Shown here one piece after another: positions 18,947 to 29,634 of a stretch of DNA of 55,311 nucleotides; position 1 is the first letter of the stretch; each line of letters begins with the position of its first letter. The position numbers and the translations under genes were made by a program. The notes under the pieces are model-generated. The model was not told where the DNA came from. It made no database searches and saw only the letters and a list, made by a program, of their open reading frames with translations. Origin of the DNA: a bacterium (lineage in GTDB: Bacteria > UBP4 > UBA4092 > JAOAEQ01); the NCBI GenBank assembly GCA_041946755.1, contig JBHGBB010000001.1, forward strand, positions 1 through 55,311, read 5' to 3'.

Positions 18947-21220
18947 ATGAACGTGCTACCGACCGGCCCTTTAAAGAACAAACGGGATATTCGCACCTAT
19001 TTTAAAGATATGCAGCGGTGGAAGTTCGATGTCGCCTATGCAGGATACTATGCCTTCCCCTGGAAAGATACCGTTGGTAAATTCAAACCGTTCTATCAGG
19101 GTTTCGCAAAACAAGCGCATCAGCTGAAAATGAATGCGGTGATGCAGATTCAATCGACCGTAGCTTTCCTCGATGATGTCCCGTTAACCGAAGCGCAGTT
19201 GTATACCGATAACACCCCCCATCTATATACCCATTTCGCTGAATGGGGTAAAAAGAATTTCTTCGGCTCTTATGCTTCAGAAATCTGGCTGGAATACCTG
19301 ATGAAGTTAACCAAACTGTTTGTCCAGGAGTATAAGTATGACTGGATTGTGTTCGAAGAGCCGATGTATATTGTCGATATTCCGGGGACCAAAGACCGGT
19401 TCTATGAAGTATTCAAACAGCGATATCCGAACATCCCTTATCCTACCAAACATCTGGAAACAGTGGGCTATGTAAAAGTCCAGGAGCTGAAACAGGAATT
19501 GCAGCTGCGGTTCTATGACCGGCTGACCGCTTATGCGAAGAAAATCGGGGCGAAGAAAGTCGGGATCATGCCCTGGTTCTTTTCGCCTACTAACGAGAAT
19601 ACCCCGGCAGAAACCTTCCATACCGCTTGCAGTAACGGCCGGATGCTGATGCTGCCGAACCTGGATTTTGTAGTCGTCCGCATGCAGCCGGATAATATCT
19701 TAGCGGATGCGATGCTGAATACTTCCGGGGAAGCCTTACCCCGGCTGTATTATCTGGAGACCTTAGCGCATACGGTAGGCAAACCGGTGGTAGTAGTCGA
19801 TAATCCGACCAACGAGCATCCGACTCCCCAATATCCGAATGAACGGTTGATTCCTTTAGATTACTTCACCCGATGCACCTTAGCGTTAACCGCAGCCGCT
19901 CCGAATGGCATCACCCGGCATTGGTATGGCAAGAATTATAAACAGGAAGAACCGCAGATGGGGTTATATACCGCGGTGAACGAGTTTCTCCCTCGGTTAG
20001 GGTATCCGGAATCAGCGTTTGCGTTTGTTTATAGCCATCGGGCGAATTGGCATACCCTACCCTTGAAACCATTTGAGGTATGGAAGAACTATTGGCATCT
20101 CATGCGGGCGCTATTATACGATTATAAGTTCCCGACTCATACCTTTTATGCGGAATCGATAGGAGAATGTTTAGCCCGGAATCCGCAGGTTAAGGTATTA
20201 ATATTCAATGAATATTTCCCGTTAACCAAAGAAGAAACCGCGTTAGTCGATAAATGGTGGACTGAGAAACCGAACCGGATGCTGATTTATTTCGGGTCCG
20301 GTAATGGCTATTCTGCTGATAGCGATCGGAAAGGATGGAATCGGGATATATTAGATTCGCCTTGTATCTTAAAGCTGTTTGGCATCGAATCGCCGACTGA
20401 GACCAAGACCGAATTAGGGATATCTAGGTTCATCGAGTCGGAGATAACCGATTTTGGGATAGATTTAACCTTTACCGGCACCAATTATACCCAGGATGCG
20501 TTCTGGGGGAAAGAACTGAATATCGCTACCCCTCAGGTAGCGAAAGTTAAAACCAAAGAGCATGAATCGATAGAAACCTTTTATACCGGGAACGGCAACC
20601 TGCCTCTAGTCACTATGCGAACCAATAAACTGGGGAATCAAGCCCTGTTTATCGGATTAAGCTTATTATGGGAACGAGGGTTACCGCCGTTACGGGAAGT
20701 TATCCGGTATGCGAATAACCAGCTAAACCTGCATCGGTGGGTCACCAATCCGACCCAAGGGATATTATGGACCCGGAATAAATGGAATTATCTGGTGATG
20801 TCGAATCTGGATATCGACCCCGGCATGGCAACGATTCAACTGCCGAACCAAGGGAAACTATGGGAGGTTCGGGAGCATCGGTTTATGGTAGAAGAGACGC
20901 AGCGGAGCGAAAATATCCAGAAGACCCATATCGATATCCCGGGATATAGTTTCCGGATATTCCGGTTTGTTGATGCTGACGACCAGCTAATCGATATTTC
21001 CGGGATGATAACGATACAAGACCTGAGTTATACTGCTAAACAGCTTAAACTAAAACTGATGGCGAAAGACCCGATTTCGATAACTTTAAAATCTATGCCG
21101 GTTAAGGTTTGGGTGAATAAGAAACCTACCCGGCCGAAGGTAGAGAAAAAAGAACCGGTAGTTGAATTACACATTAAATGCCCGGTCGGTGAGAACGAGT
21201 TGGAATTGAAGTGGAAGTAG
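18947..21220 (+). CDS. large hypothetical protein, possible TIM-barrel glycoside hydrolase with GH42-like domain order
   Basis: 757 aa with no signal peptide. It contains WIVFEEPMY and a later KVLIFNEYFPLTKEE...MLIYFGSGNGY segment reminiscent of a GH42 catalytic domain plus trimerisation (flavodoxin-like) domain. This is weak, by-eye evidence. Confidence 0.3.
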   Translation: MNVLPTGPLKNKRDIRTYFKDMQRWKFDVAYAGYYAFPWKDTVGKFKPFYQGFAKQAHQLKMNAVMQIQSTVAFLDDVPLTEAQLYTDNTPHLYTHFAEWGKKNFFGSYASEIWLEYLMKLTKLFVQEYKYDWIVFEEPMYIVDIPGTKDRFYEVFKQRYPNIPYPTKHLETVGYVKVQELKQELQLRFYDRLTAYAKKIGAKKVGIMPWFFSPTNENTPAETFHTACSNGRMLMLPNLDFVVVRMQPDNILADAMLNTSGEALPRLYYLETLAHTVGKPVVVVDNPTNEHPTPQYPNERLIPLDYFTRCTLALTAAAPNGITRHWYGKNYKQEEPQMGLYTAVNEFLPRLGYPESAFAFVYSHRANWHTLPLKPFEVWKNYWHLMRALLYDYKFPTHTFYAESIGECLARNPQVKVLIFNEYFPLTKEETALVDKWWTEKPNRMLIYFGSGNGYSADSDRKGWNRDILDSPCILKLFGIESPTETKTELGISRFIESEITDFGIDLTFTGTNYTQDAFWGKELNIATPQVAKVKTKEHESIETFYTGNGNLPLVTMRTNKLGNQALFIGLSLLWERGLPPLREVIRYANNQLNLHRWVTNPTQGILWTRNKWNYLVMSNLDIDPGMATIQLPNQGKLWEVREHRFMVEETQRSENIQKTHIDIPGYSFRIFRFVDADDQLIDISGMITIQDLSYTAKQLKLKLMAKDPISITLKSMPVKVWVNKKPTRPKVEKKEPVVELHIKCPVGENELELKWK

Positions 21221-21274
21221 GGGCGAGTCACTGACTCGCCCGCTACATCGGGCGACCCCATGGGTCGCCCCTAC
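21217..21274. repeat. REP doublet (REPIN-like): GTAG-GGGCGAGTCA-C-TGACTCGCCC ... GGGCGACCC-CAT-GGGTCGCCC-CTAC
   Basis: Two GC-rich palindromes are bracketed by GTAG / CTAC. The outer GTAGGGGCGA and TCGCCCCTAC are reverse complements. The first GTAG overlaps the TAG stop at 21218-21220. A second copy lies at 38534-38595. Confidence 0.85.
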
Positions 21275-21281
21275 CATAATA

Positions 21282-21419
21282 AAAGCAAGTTTGCTATTAG
21301 CAAACTTGCTTTATAGACACCTCTTTTAAATAAGAAAAAGCAGATTTTCTAATAGAAAATCTGCTTTTTTATTGAGTGCTAAATCCTAGCTATATTCCTG
21401 AATTGGCTAGAGTTAAGAT
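21282..21419. repeat. 138-bp two-hairpin terminator module, copy A
   Basis: AAAGCAAGTTTGC-TATTA-GCAAACTTGCTTT, then AAAAAGCAGATTTTC-TAATA-GAAAATCTGCTTTTTT (21335-21370, bidirectional terminator), then ATTGAGTGCTAAATCCT..CCTGAATTGGCTAGAGTTAAGAT. It is repeated at 22932-23069. Confidence 0.9.
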
Positions 21420-21443
21420 TCGTTATTTTGGGCAACCGGAAAT

Positions 21444-22289
21444 TTATTTCTTAATTTGTTTTCTTTGAGTTATCGGAGGCAGATAATTTTCTCCGGTTAC
21501 TACGCTCTTACCGGTTTTCTGTTCCAGTTCAATTCGCGCTTTTTTAGCGATAGTGCCGCCTTTTTTCCCCGCGTCGGTATTTTCTGACATACCGGTAGCC
21601 TCGACACTTTCAGCAATCTGGCGGGTAGACAATTCCGCTAACGCAGTGAAAATTAATTCCGCTTCACTCATATGGTCTCGAAGATTCTGGGTTTTGAGTC
21701 CTTTCATATCCTTATGCTGTTTAACCGAAACCCCACTCCATTCCTGATGAATGATATTGGTTAGAATCGCATATTCCTCTTCCCCTTGAATCGCATGCTC
21801 TTTCCAATAATCGGTAAGTTTATTCCGGGTTTCCTGACCCATCATCCGCTGCTGAATCCATTTATCGCTTCTGCCATGCTGTTGCCAATATAATCGAGCG
21901 CGGTCGAGAGACCGGGCGGGATCGCTCATATCCTGGATGCGTTCATATCCTACTTTGGCTAACCAGAGTTTGATCGGTTCAGCTTTCGGACTGGGTACTG
22001 ATTGGATGAGACGTAATAGCGTTTCGGGATTGGCAGCATCAGTTACCCGCATTTTCCCATCTTCAGCCATCATTTTCAACTGGTGACAATTTGTCACCGT
22101 TTGACTGCCTTCCTTTTTAAGTCGTTCTTTTAACTTATTCCAATATTTCCGCGCAGTTTGATAATCCGGCTGCTGAATCAAAGCGGCGATTATATCCACT
22201 ACTGAAAAATACCACTGCTCTGATTTCTCGTCATATACTCGACGAATTTTATAACCTTCAAAGACTGCTAATGCTCGGTTATCATTCAT
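21444..22289 (-). CDS. Bro-N domain protein with DinD-like C-terminal region (prophage antirepressor-like)
   Basis: The N-terminus FEGYKIRRVYDEKSEQWYFSVVDIIAAL fits Bro-N. The C-terminal LRDHMSEAELIFTALAELSTRQIA resembles E. coli DinD (ILDHMGSTELAANLFRATQTEE). Confidence 0.65.
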   Translation of the reverse strand: MNDNRALAVFEGYKIRRVYDEKSEQWYFSVVDIIAALIQQPDYQTARKYWNKLKERLKKEGSQTVTNCHQLKMMAEDGKMRVTDAANPETLLRLIQSVPSPKAEPIKLWLAKVGYERIQDMSDPARSLDRARLYWQQHGRSDKWIQQRMMGQETRNKLTDYWKEHAIQGEEEYAILTNIIHQEWSGVSVKQHKDMKGLKTQNLRDHMSEAELIFTALAELSTRQIAESVEATGMSENTDAGKKGGTIAKKARIELEQKTGKSVVTGENYLPPITQRKQIKK

Positions 22290-22319
22290 ATTCGCCTCGA
22301 TTAAGAAGTAGTAGTTTCA

Positions 22320-22378
22320 GTCGATTACAATTTGTAACCGACTCAATTCACTAATACATTATACTATAAATTATTATA
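22320..22378 (-). promoter_or_regulatory. duplicated TAGTATAAT -10 boxes plus a palindromic operator-like site upstream of the Bro-N gene
   Basis: On the minus strand: TAGTATAAT twice (TATAAT at 22378-22373 and 22363-22358), followed by GTCGGTTACAA-A-TTGTAATCGAC (22342-20), 31 nt upstream of the ATG. Confidence 0.35.
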
Positions 22379-22404
22379 CTATGGAATAGCTGAATATAAG
22401 ATTT

Positions 22405-22439
22405 CCACGAAAGCACGAAAGATAAAAGACACGAAAGCC
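22405..22439. repeat. CACGAAA-array element, left arm
   Basis: CCACGAAAGCACGAAAGATAAAAGACACGAAAGCC. The inverse arm is at 22835-22867, on the other side of ORF 22472-22786. Confidence 0.8.
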
Positions 22440-22471
22440 AAGAATATCCAAAACCATTGAATTATATTTGG

Positions 22472-22786
22472 TTATTTAAGTCTTGCCCCGCAATGATTGC
22501 AATAGCTATTAATCCATGTTTGACATATTACAGGTATATTCTCTACATATAAGGTTACATAGAGACTTTTAGAACAATTCGGGCATTTTAACTTAAATAG
22601 ACCAAATCCTATATATAAATTAAACACTGCATACCCAAGCATAAAATAATCTAAGAGATTGTTAAATAGGTAGGAAACTACTAGGAAGTAGGGGATACCC
22701 CCTATTAAAACAGCAATGGTTTTTAGCCAATGTTTCCGAATCTTGGGACGCAACTGATTAAATTGGTCTCGGCAATCTTTTTCCAT
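22472..22786 (-). CDS. small membrane protein with C-terminal zinc ribbon (hypothetical)
   Basis: 104 aa with two hydrophobic helices (TIAVLIGGIPYFLVVSYLF, FMLGYAVFNLYIGFGLF), then CPNC-x29-CNHC. Confidence 0.5.
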   Translation of the reverse strand: MEKDCRDQFNQLRPKIRKHWLKTIAVLIGGIPYFLVVSYLFNNLLDYFMLGYAVFNLYIGFGLFKLKCPNCSKSLYVTLYVENIPVICQTWINSYCNHCGARLK

Positions 22787-22834
22787 TTTAGGTATACTTT
22801 ACCATAAAACCATGAATGAATTAAATGATGGTTC

Positions 22835-22867
22835 TTTTTGTGGTTTACATATTTCGTGGTTTCGTCT
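22835..22867. repeat. CACGAAA-array element, right (inverse) arm
   Basis: CTTTTGTGGTTTACATATTTCGTGGTTTCGTC. Confidence 0.75.
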
Positions 22868-22886
22868 GCCAGACCATTATGGTGTC

Positions 22887-22906
22887 ATTCCCGCGAAGGC
22901 GGGAAT
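22887..22906. repeat. short GC-rich palindrome ATTCCCGC-GAAG-GCGGGAAT
   Basis: Perfect 8-bp arms and a 4-nt loop. Confidence 0.8.
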
Positions 22907-22931
22907 CCAGTTTTCGAGTCTTGAGCCGATC

Positions 22932-23069
22932 AAAGCAAGTTTGCTATTAGCAAACTTGATTTATAGACACCTCTTTTAAACCAGAAAAAGCAAGTTCGCC
23001 TTAGACGAACTTGCTTTTTTATTGAGTGCTAAATCCTACATATATCCCTGAATTGGCTAAAGTTAAGAT
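22932..23069. repeat. 138-bp two-hairpin terminator module, copy B
   Basis: Same length as copy A. By manual alignment it has about 7 substitutions outside the second hairpin. The inner stem of that hairpin is replaced by AAAAAGCAAGTTCG-CCTTAGA-CGAACTTGCTTTTT (22985-23020), which is still perfectly paired. Confidence 0.9.
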
Positions 23070-23154
23070 ATATTATTGATGATTTTCCGACTAGCGCCTT
23101 TATTTCAGTTGGCAATTATTGTCTACAGTTCAACCTCTTTTTCGGGATTTATTA

Positions 23155-23227
23155 GTGACATTTTGTCACCGGTGCAAGTCCGGCTTCGGGAGTATGTTCT
23201 AAAATGGAACATGCTAAATTTTTCTTT
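23155..23227 (+). ncRNA. candidate small structured RNA or tRNA 3'-half-like relic (three hairpins plus U-tract)
   Basis: GTGACA-TTT-TGTCAC; CCGG-TGCAAGT-CCGG followed by CTTCGGG (compare the tRNA-Leu 3' end GGGG-TTCAAAT-CCCC-G-CTTCGGC); AGTATGTTC-TAAAATG-GAACATGCT followed by AAATTTTTCTTT. Confidence 0.3.
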
Positions 23228-23363: not shown

Positions 23364-25070
23364 TTAGGCAATTCCTGATTTCAGGGCATTCTTCAATGTA
23401 TCAACAAATACTTGATTGCGATAGAGACGTTTTGGTTTGAAGTTACCCTTTGACTGTTCAATATTAATAATAGTCCAAATACGATCAAGTTCAGCATTTG
23501 TGATAGTCTTATGGCTAATTCCAATAAGGACATCTCGGAAATAATCAGGTGTTCCTGAGACAATAGAGACCCATATAAAAGCAAAAAGACATCGATAATC
23601 AGTAGCAAATTTTTTTGATTGACTCCATGCAATACGCTTTGTGACTAAAGAATGCTCCATATGCTTAACAATATTGAGAACCGCTAGATAGATTCGGATG
23701 TCCATATGTGTGTCAAATAGTAGGTTATATTCTTTGTCGATACGCATGAACTTTGTTTTCATTTTAGCTGCTCGTGCTGGATTTTTTAACACAAGTGCCA
23801 TTATGCAACTAGCAAGATAAGAAGGAGAAATTATTCGATGCGTCGGGCGTCCTTGATTCTTGTGATAATTCTTACGTCTGTCGTAAAACCAATTGTCTCT
23901 AATTAAAATCTCTTCGATATCTCTCTGAATCTTTTCTGTTGCTCTAAGTGATGATAGTTCGACGCCAGTTTGATAATTGGTCGCCTTAATAATTCGATCT
24001 CGGACTTCGGGGTTTTGTGTAACAATTATCTTCACTAGCACTGCGCGATCATCATTATCATTAGGATGACTAATAAAGCGCCTATAGATAGTTTCCGTTG
24101 TCTGAAGACCATTAACAATCTGAATATTCTCAAGACTGATCTCTTTACCAGCAACGTTAGCCGCTGTTGCAATAATCGTAACACCGTTGTTCAACCACCA
24201 GAAATCACATTGATCAATTCGATTGGCATTAGCTAACGTCTGTTCGATATCTTCGTTTACCGGAACAGTACCAAGGTAGTCACGAACATTGGATTCAAAT
24301 AGATATGTGCGAAGAGCACCTTGGTCATCAGTGATAAACTTATGATAGTCAGGTAGAGTTGTCAGAATAATATAGTTGGTCTTGGCACGTGAAACATAGT
24401 TTTCAATAAAGGTTAACCGTAGTGTTCGGACACGCTGCTTGCGTGATAAATTTAGTAGTTCAGTAGCCCCAATAAACTGAAAATGGGTAACGCAATCACT
24501 AAAGAGTTCGTGCACTTGCTCTTCGATCAATCTAGCACGACCAATCACATTATCCGCAATTGAATTAGCATCACCTCTCGATACGTAAATAAATGTGAAA
24601 TGTAACGAGGGCTGACGAGCGGATAGTTCTCTGTATGCATCACAAAATAGCTGTCTTTGTTCAATCAAATCGTCATTGTATTCAGATGAAAACGAATCTG
24701 GCTTGCGTGAGAGATCAAATAATTCTGGTAGTGAAGCAAAGAGATTATTGAGTGGTACTTGCCGAAATGTAGTCTCATGTTTGCAAGTTATTATGATTAC
24801 TTCAACACTTGGGTGTTTGCGAACCATATCTTCTGTTGGCACTTCGGAGAGTGCTAGCCCGTCGAGGAAAACATAAAAACCATCTATCCCGCCATCGTCG
24901 CTTCCGTCTACCCAACCCTGTTCAATCTCGTCGTAGGACACGTCATGGTCTTTAAGCAGATTTTCGAAAGCGAACAGTTCAAATACCTCACTGATATTGG
25001 TAAGTTCTGGATATTCCGGTTTCTTTTTTTCTAAGAGTGCATCAAGAAGAATCAAATCATTCTTTGCCAT
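23364..25070 (-). CDS. AIPR family abortive-infection (phage resistance) protein
   Basis: 568 aa. The N-terminal GWVDGSDDGGIDGFYVF and the central FWWLNNGVTIIA...IVNGLQTT are hallmark AIPR (PF10592-like) motifs, recognised by eye. Confidence 0.75.
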   Translation of the reverse strand: MAKNDLILLDALLEKKKPEYPELTNISEVFELFAFENLLKDHDVSYDEIEQGWVDGSDDGGIDGFYVFLDGLALSEVPTEDMVRKHPSVEVIIITCKHETTFRQVPLNNLFASLPELFDLSRKPDSFSSEYNDDLIEQRQLFCDAYRELSARQPSLHFTFIYVSRGDANSIADNVIGRARLIEEQVHELFSDCVTHFQFIGATELLNLSRKQRVRTLRLTFIENYVSRAKTNYIILTTLPDYHKFITDDQGALRTYLFESNVRDYLGTVPVNEDIEQTLANANRIDQCDFWWLNNGVTIIATAANVAGKEISLENIQIVNGLQTTETIYRRFISHPNDNDDRAVLVKIIVTQNPEVRDRIIKATNYQTGVELSSLRATEKIQRDIEEILIRDNWFYDRRKNYHKNQGRPTHRIISPSYLASCIMALVLKNPARAAKMKTKFMRIDKEYNLLFDTHMDIRIYLAVLNIVKHMEHSLVTKRIAWSQSKKFATDYRCLFAFIWVSIVSGTPDYFRDVLIGISHKTITNAELDRIWTIINIEQSKGNFKPKRLYRNQVFVDTLKNALKSGIA

Positions 25071-26109: not shown

Positions 26110-26142
26110 AAAAAGCAGATTATCTATTAGATAATCTGCTTT
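26110..26142. terminator. hairpin terminator (U-tract on the minus strand)
   Basis: AAAAAGCAGATTATC-TATTA-GATAATCTGCTTT. It is related to the second hairpin of module A. Confidence 0.55.
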
Positions 26143-27690: not shown

Positions 27691-27704
27691 AGATAAAAAG
27701 ATTT

Positions 27705-27799
27705 CCACGAAACCACGAAATTTTTAAAGCACGAAATAATAGAACTAAAACTAATTTAGGTTTTTTTTCGTGTTTTCTAACTTTCGTGTTTTCGTGGTA
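27705..27799. repeat. CACGAAA-array palindromic element (complete)
   Basis: CCACGAAACCACGAAA..AAAGCACGAAA - loop - TTTTCGTGTTTTCTAACTTTCGTGTTTTCGTGGTA. It ends 2 nt from the stop codon at 27802-27804. Confidence 0.9.
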
Positions 27800-28839: not shown

Positions 28840-28880
28840 GGTTTCTTTTCGTGTTTTCTATCTTTCGTGTTTTCGTGGTA
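28840..28880. repeat. CACGAAA-array element, half copy overlapping a CDS 3' end
   Basis: GGTTTCTTTTCGTGTTTTCTATCTTTCGTGTTTTCGTGGTA. The last residues (..LPRKHER*) of the 28858-29634 methyltransferase are encoded by it. Confidence 0.85.
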
Positions 28881-29634
28881 AAGCATACGGTTTAATGCAT
28901 CTAATGGTCGCCATATCAGAATCCGGTTTAACTTTCTTGTCGGATAACCAATCGAAAGCTTTAACACTTTTAAAACCCGCCTGATGTAGGAACTCGGCGA
29001 TTTCATCTATAGTATAAAACCGGAGTTTACCCAGGTCCTCTTCCGCGCCGACCAGAGCACCATTAACATATTTCTCGATAATCAATAGCCGGGATTGGAT
29101 ATGGGTCTCCGAATCATATTCGGTGAGATACCTTTTGGTATAAATCAGGGTATCATTGCATTGTTTCCAATCGCCTTGCCATCCGGTATCCGGTTTCCTG
29201 ATTTTGTTACTTAGATGGAGGATATCGAACATAAACGCAGCGCCGGGAAGTAAATGATGGTACACATTAGTAAACGTCTGCACCATTTCGTCATTCGTAA
29301 TGACAAAACTGAGCGTTCCATCCGGAATAAAAACGAAACTTAATTTATAGTGCAGTTTGAAGGTTTGTATCGATTGCTTGGTTAGCGCGGGTTTAAGATG
29401 CAATTTCCGGCATTTTGTTCGGCATCTATTGAGCATATCTTCCGAGGTATCGATGCCAATAATTTTTATTTTCTTTCTTAATAACGGAATTAATATTCTA
29501 CCGGTTCCGCAACCCATCTCAAGTATAGTTCCTTGAAGATGCTGCATCTGGTTAAGCCAAAATGATAATTCTCTTTCTGTAATATCCGGATATGCTAAAT
29601 CATAATATTCTGATAAGATTTTACCGTATCGCAT
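28858..29634 (-). CDS. class I SAM-dependent methyltransferase
   Basis: Motif I ILEMGCGTGRI; 258 aa. Confidence 0.75.
   Translation of the reverse strand: MRYGKILSEYYDLAYPDITERELSFWLNQMQHLQGTILEMGCGTGRILIPLLRKKIKIIGIDTSEDMLNRCRTKCRKLHLKPALTKQSIQTFKLHYKLSFVFIPDGTLSFVITNDEMVQTFTNVYHHLLPGAAFMFDILHLSNKIRKPDTGWQGDWKQCNDTLIYTKRYLTEYDSETHIQSRLLIIEKYVNGALVGAEEDLGKLRFYTIDEIAEFLHQAGFKSVKAFDWLSDKKVKPDSDMATIRCIKPYALPRKHER

Follow-up and report, generated by a model that had tools for sequence, protein, structure and literature searches.

A REP/BIME-like mosaic of palindromic units, present twice around a Bro-N gene, and the dispersed palindrome family of its hairpins in a UBP4 bacterium

The DNA analysed here is a stretch of 55,311 nucleotides (the window; contig JBHGBB010000001.1 of assembly GCA_041946755.1) from a bacterium of the UBP4 lineage, and it contained two copies of a two-hairpin module around a Bro-N gene. 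In our study, the hairpins of this module were found to belong to a lineage-specific dispersed family of palindromes, with about 95 copies in the genome, a fixed outer frame of 8 bp and a hypervariable symmetric core. The exchange of the hairpin 2 stem between the two copies was ordinary behaviour of this palindrome family and was not evidence of a dedicated structured RNA. The module is a new member of the class of mosaics that resemble repetitive extragenic palindromes (REPs) and bacterial interspersed mosaic elements (BIMEs), and not a new category of element. The reading that we prefer, with a probability of roughly two in three, is that of a BIME-like mosaic of two palindromic units (PUs), a linker of common vocabulary and a 50-nt right arm, which was locally duplicated around an imported Bro-N cassette and which is probably a bidirectional terminator.

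The two copies were direct repeats without gaps, at positions 21279-21427 (copy A) and 22929-23077 (copy B) of the window, and a whole-genome search gave a homology of 149 bp at 85% identity (E = 1e-41). Beyond both module ends the identity was at chance level within 20 nt. Over the 138-bp span 21282-21419 versus 22932-23069 the copies were of equal length and aligned without gaps, with 21 differences. The 19-nt core of hairpin 2 (21343-21361) accounted for fourteen of these. Seven were outside this core, over 119 nt (positions 21309, 21331, 21332, 21389, 21390, 21396, and 21410 of copy A), and Fisher's exact test gave p = 2e-10 for the clustering in the core. An initial annotation of the window had described two copies of the same length, about seven substitutions outside hairpin 2 and an exchanged hairpin 2 core with intact pairing. 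The lengths were borne out by a repeat finder and pairwise alignment, the substitutions numbered exactly seven, and 14 of the 19 core positions differed, with pairing kept by both versions inside the common AAAAAGCA...TGCTTTTT frame. Hairpin 1, which had been called conserved, was present in both copies, but a C to A change at 22959 breaks one outer pair in copy B. The linker and the right arm were about 94% conserved. The module ends were not inverted repeats of each other, and the fold consisted of two separate hairpins; a third hairpin predicted in the right arm of copy A was not kept in copy B.

The genome searched was the metagenome-assembled genome (MAG) of the window itself, which contained 3.9 Mb in 362 contigs (given below as C numbers with positions) at 41% G+C. 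Hairpins 1 and 2, together with the hairpin at 26110-26142, which the initial annotation had rightly listed as a third variant of hairpin 2, fitted one frame, AGCARNYT-N11-ARNYTGCT, an odd palindrome of 27 nt (the AGCA frame). The frame was found 95 times in the genome and 18 times in the sole genome from the same family, against 0-1 matches in each of 29 further genomes, and the reversed-pattern control gave 0-1 matches. The 95 copies represented 70 distinct sequences, almost all of them self-complementary. From the outside to the centre, the five unconstrained core pairs were complementary in 94, 86, 92, 87, and 75% of the copies (n = 95). The innermost pair is unable to form in a folded strand, where the loop would be of 1 nt, and its 75% complementarity therefore indicates that the symmetry is maintained in the DNA itself, rather than by selection for an RNA stem-loop. 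The half-site AGCARNYT alone was not enriched (2084 observed against 2104 expected), so that the unit is the whole palindrome and not a word of the uptake type; the idea of an uptake sequence was rejected on this ground. The AGCA-frame units are symmetric, and their orientation is therefore undefined.

Copy A was composed of PU1, linker, PU2 and right arm. PU1-A (21282-21312) was a perfect 15+1+15 palindrome, AAAGCAAGTTTGCTA-T-TAGCAAACTTGCTTT, whose 27-mer was found six times among the matches to the frame pattern (five other loci). The linker (21313-21334, ATAGACACCTCTTTTAAATAAG) was a diverged form of the common PU-PU linker of the genome. PU2-A (21335-21369, AAAAAGCAGATTTTCTA-A-TAGAAAATCTGCTTTTT) shared its 27-mer with C307:4863 and carried an A-tract and a T-tract on opposite sides, which makes it terminator-like on both strands. 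The right arm (21370-21427, TATTGAGTGCTAAATCC...CTAGAGTTAAGAT...TTATT) was known only from the two module copies; its start and end resembled the linker motif ATTGA...AGAGTTA, with about 30 additional nt between. In copy B, PU1-B (22932-22962) was the same as PU1-A apart from the substitution at 22959, and PU2-B (22985-23019, AAAAAGCAAGTTCGCCT-T-AGaCGAACTTGCTTTTT) contained one central mismatch. Copies identical to PU1 and PU2-A were thus present on other contigs, whereas PU2-B was unique in the genome, with its nearest relatives at C79:19724 and C6:13466. The solitary PU (26110-26142, AAAAAGCAGATTATCTA-T-TAGATAATCTGCTTT) lay between the convergent genes of a 181-aa protein (plus strand) and a LarA-like protein (minus strand), and the same 27-mer was present at C219:445.

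Exchange of the core between like flanks was also found at three or more other loci. We compared pairs of sites in which the flanks abutting a family palindrome were at least 88% identical over at least 28 nt. The cores of C352/C35 differed at six positions, those of C222/C330 at four and those of C313:9837/10901 at seven, and the differences were mirrored on both arms in each pair, between flanks of 90% identity or more; C313 and C332 contained further cases of the same flanks with a different palindrome. At C313:9800-13200 we observed three paralogous sites with the flanks GTGTCTA(A/T)AA and TTTATGTTGATATATCTAGAGTTAT and a different palindrome in each, and these preceded CarboxypepD_reg and ankyrin genes at 0.8-4 kb from an IS200-like gene. 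Like-flanked sites with mirrored core changes indicate that replacement of the unit, or concerted change from arm to arm, outpaces the divergence of the flanks in this genome. The view that structure was kept while the stem sequence changed therefore holds, but as a property of the whole dispersed family (95 palindromes, 70 sequences) and not of one module.

The difference in hairpin 2 may have arisen when another family member took the place of the whole PU, or through a concerted change of both arms, as judged from the sequences. The process would likely be strand switching on a hairpin template during replication, or short-patch conversion, either of which would keep palindromes perfect without selection on RNA. 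In quasipalindrome template switching, one arm of an inverted repeat serves as template for the other and so passes its changes on to it (PMC7202029). Such mutagenesis would likewise give perfect palindromes and apparent compensatory changes without structural selection, although it is a mechanism of mutational hotspots in E. coli and yeast (PMC7202029) and is not known to diversify a repeat family. Conserved structure with a swapped sequence between two copies is alone no evidence for a functional RNA, and in a palindrome-rich genome a process at the DNA level gives the same pattern. A wider proposal, which we regard as unlikely, is that the AGCA-frame palindromes are an undescribed, self-perfecting hypervariable element, in which the 8-bp frame, kept across two genera, would be read by a lineage-specific factor. 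Inside conserved scaffolds, the 11-nt core would change symmetrically or be swapped whole, without any REP-associated tyrosine transposase (RAYT), and the scaffolds would act as portable homology that shuffles defence-gene cassettes such as Bro-N and AIPR.

The genome as a whole was rich in palindromes. It contained 916 palindromes with a stem of at least 11 bp and at most one mismatch, compared with 75 in a block-shuffled control, and 493 of the 916 contained a single centre base. These long palindromes represented many sequence families, were mostly intergenic and formed 152 clusters of two to five. Examples of the families were AACCCGAATTGGTCSGACCAATTCGGGTT, GACGAGGGATATCSGATATCCCTCGTC, and TTGAAYTT...AARTTCAA. 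In a looser search for the AGCA frame, 99 of the 104 members were outside open reading frames (ORFs) in a genome that is 88% coding. Spacers between convergent genes were over-represented among the AGCA-frame members, and those between divergent genes were under-represented. Fifteen of the 95 AGCA-frame palindromes were within 150 nt of a contig end, where 2.8% were expected, which suggests that palindrome arrays break the assembly. Contig ends were also 5-6 times enriched for the long palindromes in general.

Sixty of the 95 AGCA-frame units had another palindrome (stem of at least 11 bp) within 100 nt, often 23-29 nt off, and the linkers between palindromes contained common motifs such as TTGATTTTAAAAGAGTTAA, with shared linkers clustering across contigs. 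The linker TTGAT-N9-GAGTTA abutted 15 AGCA-frame units. Clustered palindromic units with recurring linkers are the arrangement of the BIME type. The full module was found in two copies only, but each of its hairpins matched many other contigs in the whole-genome search. The whole layout was present at C37:6828-6960 at 73% identity, as a palindrome, a ATAGACACTCT linker, a second palindrome and ATTGA...AAGTTA. C176 contained the left-side layout only, namely a GTAG-tagged REP doublet, a PU1-like palindrome and a second palindrome. The sequence TAGACAC(C)TCT directly followed palindromes on C185 and C37; GTGTCTA was rejected as a general palindrome-adjoining tag, being present in only 8 of the 916.

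By the criteria of PMC3733652 and PMC2817692, the palindromes were REP/BIME-like in behaviour and lacked two defining features of RAYT-type REPs. Like REPs and REPINs, the AGCA-frame units were high-copy, short and extragenic. Their commonest flank was AAAA, and GTAG or CTAC was found within 8 nt of the palindrome end in only 2 of the 95 copies. One RAYT was encoded in the genome (C112:30126-30665; NF047646, 90.5 bits against a cut-off of 80), and its neighbours were GCGGTAGTTCTACTACCGC and GCGAGAGTAGAACTCTCGC repeats and not AGCA-frame palindromes. At C112:29900-30930 this RAYT was bracketed by two pairs of these GTAG-containing repeats, an arrangement typical of a REPtron, here in a poorly sampled lineage. 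The similarity to the REPs (or PUs) and BIMEs of Enterobacteria and pseudomonads extended to about 100 short extragenic palindromes, most of them close to the 3' end of a gene or in a convergent spacer, to mosaics of palindromic units alternating with a few linker motifs, to lineage specificity and to supposed functions as terminators or mRNA stabilisers and as substrates of recombination (PMC2817692, PMC3116915, PMC3733652). Unlike those elements, the AGCA-frame units were devoid of the GTAG/CGTC tag and of a tie to the RAYT of the genome, they were AT-rich instead of GC-rich, and as perfect odd palindromes they were symmetric right up to the centre. Within a REP class the sequence hardly varies, whereas the AGCA-frame family varied in its core and kept only the 8-bp outer frame.

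It is very unlikely that the palindromes are REP or REPIN elements moved by a Y1 transposase (RAYT or IS200-like), with different REPs inserted independently at the hairpin 2 site. Such movement would fit multi-copy, extragenic and clustered elements in a genome that encodes, besides the RAYT, two IS200-like TnpA proteins, one of them by a gene (C313:8544-9038) which lies 0.8-4 kb from three family palindromes. However, the RAYT was bordered by different, GTAG-containing repeats, the tag was all but missing from the family, and the perfectly symmetric PUs offer no asymmetric guide for cleavage. Both PU2 versions also filled one and the same 27-nt space, a sign of replacement rather than insertion. 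Linkage of the AGCA-frame family to the RAYT or to IS200 was rejected, as no convincing association was found. A separate, GC-rich and GTAG-tagged REP family was present in the same genome (GTAGGGGCGA, 88 times). It supplied the doublet that abuts module A at 21217-21274 (GTAGGGGCGAGTC...TCGCCCCTAC), for which about 15 contigs gave matches.

The module probably doubles as a two-way transcription terminator, as predicted from its sequence. In both copies, PU2 contained a stem of 15-17 bp followed by UUUUUUAUU on the plus strand or UUUUUCU on the minus strand, so that the stable stem-loop and U-tract of an intrinsic terminator were predicted for both copies and both strands. Among the family members with an A-tract and a T-tract, 37 of 45 adjoined the 3' end of a gene, with a median distance of 72 nt; about half of the AGCA-frame family was without these tracts. 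PUs with both tracts, if transcribed, would serve the 757-aa, Bro-N and AIPR genes as bidirectional intrinsic terminators or as 3'-end stabilisers. Bidirectional intrinsic (Rho-independent) terminators have the same order of A-tract, stem and T-tract, the same position past stop codons and the same frequent placement between convergent genes. Ordinary intrinsic terminators, in contrast, are not a sequence family of fixed frame and fixed length, and their complementarity does not extend through the loop.

A functional RNA cassette, that is, a small RNA derived from the 3' untranslated region or a dedicated terminator module, with its hairpins under RNA-structure selection and hairpin 2 free to change as long as it pairs, is improbable. 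It would agree with the position of both copies 3' of minus-strand genes, with folding on both strands that was much more stable than in shuffled sequences (z -4.9 to -7.8), with the U-tracts after PU2 and with the conservation of linker and right arm. A weak resemblance to TD-1 of Treponema denticola (RF03155) points the same way, with scores of 32.1 bits for copy A and 22.4 bits for copy B. The gathering threshold of TD-1 is 64.5 bits, however, so that the better score is half of it. TD-1 is likewise a multi-hairpin intergenic repeat, whose first stem (GCGAGUUUGCC...GGCAAACAUCGC) resembles PU1 and whose U-rich terminal hairpin resembles PU2, but its middle hairpin is missing from the module and the organism is unrelated. 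The symmetry of the family up to its centre goes beyond what selection by RNA folding would give, and the same hairpins occurred about 95 times amid unrelated flanks. Only two full copies were present, with none found in relatives or public collections, and the third predicted hairpin was broken in copy B. The promoter scan found no promoter common to both copies. There was no Rfam match above threshold, and coding potential that would support a dedicated RNA gene was not found. A sigma-70 or integration host factor reading of the linker and right arm was rejected, as the spacings and consensus did not fit when judged by eye. On the preferred reading, a dedicated gene for a structured RNA is not present here. 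Of the functional RNA or terminator cassette proposed in the initial annotation, the terminator is plausible and the pairing is kept, whereas the dedicated RNA was left unsupported by promoter, Rfam family or coding potential.

The second part of the preferred reading, local duplication around an imported cassette, relates to the genes between the copies. The Bro-N / DinD-like protein had more than 8000 homologues, and the best 120 of them were 82-88% identical, with named homologues among these from Aminicenantes, Thermodesulfobacteriota, Nitrospirae, Hydrogenedentes, and Acidobacteriota. This conservation was unusually high for an accessory gene. Of the two homologue contexts looked up, one contained reverse-transcriptase, restriction-modification/methyltransferase, helicase and toxin-antitoxin genes nearby, and the other an adjoining DUF1016/YhcG gene. 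The module was missing from both, and the idea that it travels with the Bro-N gene was rejected. Homologues across phyla, without the module in the two contexts looked up, indicate that the cassette was imported and that the module is native. The two copies may have arisen by duplication or by Campbell-type homologous recombination at a resident module when the cassette entered; direct repeats around an insert are the expected product of a Campbell-type crossover at such a module. Palindromes of the GTGACAATTTGTCAC type were present inside Bro-N (22074-22099), upstream of it (22315-22343) and beyond module B (23146-23171). The same upstream and internal pair was found in a JGI contig (L044, 1828-1866 and 2070-2108) whose Bro-N was 88% identical and had a 23-nt direct repeat on its flanks. 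This arrangement looks like an operator or mobile-cassette signature.

The exact bracketing of the Bro-N and 104-aa cassette by two direct copies could also indicate a recombination site of the att or attC type that captures gene cassettes, with the flanks as crossover scaffold and the variable hairpin as the cassette-specific part; we consider this a small chance. The excess of palindromes near contig ends, which may reflect population variation there, and a 23-nt direct repeat that also flanks the Bro-N homologue in the JGI contig L044 would agree with it. The seven substitutions between the copies speak against a recent site-specific duplication, though, and only one cassette was bracketed. 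Beyond AIPR there was just a solitary PU past the next gene and no module. No recombinase genes were found on the contig of the window (C1), and the whole MAG yielded only two tyrosine recombinases. The attC site of an integron is a single, long and imperfect hairpin of 57-141 bp with R''/L''-L'/R' boxes, extrahelical bases and an adjoining intI gene. The module resembles it as a structured element 3' of cassettes, similar in length and with structure kept more than sequence, but it consists of two separate perfect palindromes. Terminal inverted core sites (R''/R', GTTRRRY), a single bulged hairpin and a nearby intI were not found in the module or on the contig. Recombination of the RecA type between dispersed repeats would account for the layout without a dedicated site. 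The recombination scaffold suggested in the initial annotation is thus conceivable, as the copies flank a horizontally acquired cassette, but a recombinase gene was not found on the contig.

The flanks specific to the module were not found in 40 relatives, in the GTDB species representatives, in JGI metagenome contigs or in IMG/VR, in scans which may omit records very near to the genome of the window. The sequence TTATTGAGTGCTAAATCCTA and a degenerate palindrome pattern gave no match in GTDB genome contigs, and CCTGAATTGGCTANAGTTAAGAT gave none in JGI metagenome contigs. Five metagenome matches to TTATAGACACCTCTTTTAAA and two IMG/VR matches to TTGAGTGCTAAATCCTA were rejected as chance, as they were without an adjacent palindrome or extended similarity. 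This flank search in the genome and its relatives, for which the initial annotation had called, thus recovered two full copies only, largely the outcome that the annotation itself had named as speaking against its proposal.

Several observations weigh against the BIME-like mosaic. The 50-nt right arm (21376-21427) was confined to the two module copies in the genome and the other collections searched, so that part of the module is not repeat vocabulary. With 14 of 19 core positions changed between 94%-identical flanks, the module of the window was the most extreme case in the genome. An enzyme linked to the AGCA-frame family was not found, given the missing tag and a sole RAYT amid other repeats. 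The stems were AT-rich, and a scan for the terminator consensus listed PU2-A only, on the minus strand only. The same-family genome was the sole close relative for comparison, and the orthologues of the 757-aa and LarA-like genes were on different contigs there with unrelated neighbours, so that an empty site was not definable. The family is of moderate interest: it comes from a barely sampled lineage, combines a fixed frame with a hypervariable but symmetric core and has neither a GTAG tag nor a linked transposase. It is a possible study case for the diversification of palindromes and for the seeding of terminators or recombination substrates around imported defence genes.

The modules enclosed two minus-strand genes, the 281-aa Bro-N / DinD-like gene (21444-22289) and a 104-aa ORF (22472-22786), for which only weak, sub-threshold zinc-ribbon and membrane-protein matches were obtained. 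The placement of copy A after Bro-N and of copy B after AIPR, as initially annotated, was correct. It can be refined in that copy A lies between convergent genes, being also 3' of the plus-strand gene of a conserved 757-aa protein (18947-21220), whose 3' end faces the module and whose orthologue in the same-family genome is 74% identical. Copy B lies between the 104-aa ORF, upstream of which it is situated, and the minus-strand AIPR gene (568 aa, 23364-25070), 295 nt beyond the stop codon of the latter. The hairpin TCATTCCCGCGAAGGCGGGAATCCAG at 22880-22912 belonged to another dispersed family with at least 15 matching contigs. The 104-aa ORF was flanked by inverted arms of a CACGAAA array at 22395-22437 and 22836-22865, and similar arrays were present on C49, C89, C115, C195, and C32 and at positions 27698-27736 and 28847-28881 of the window.

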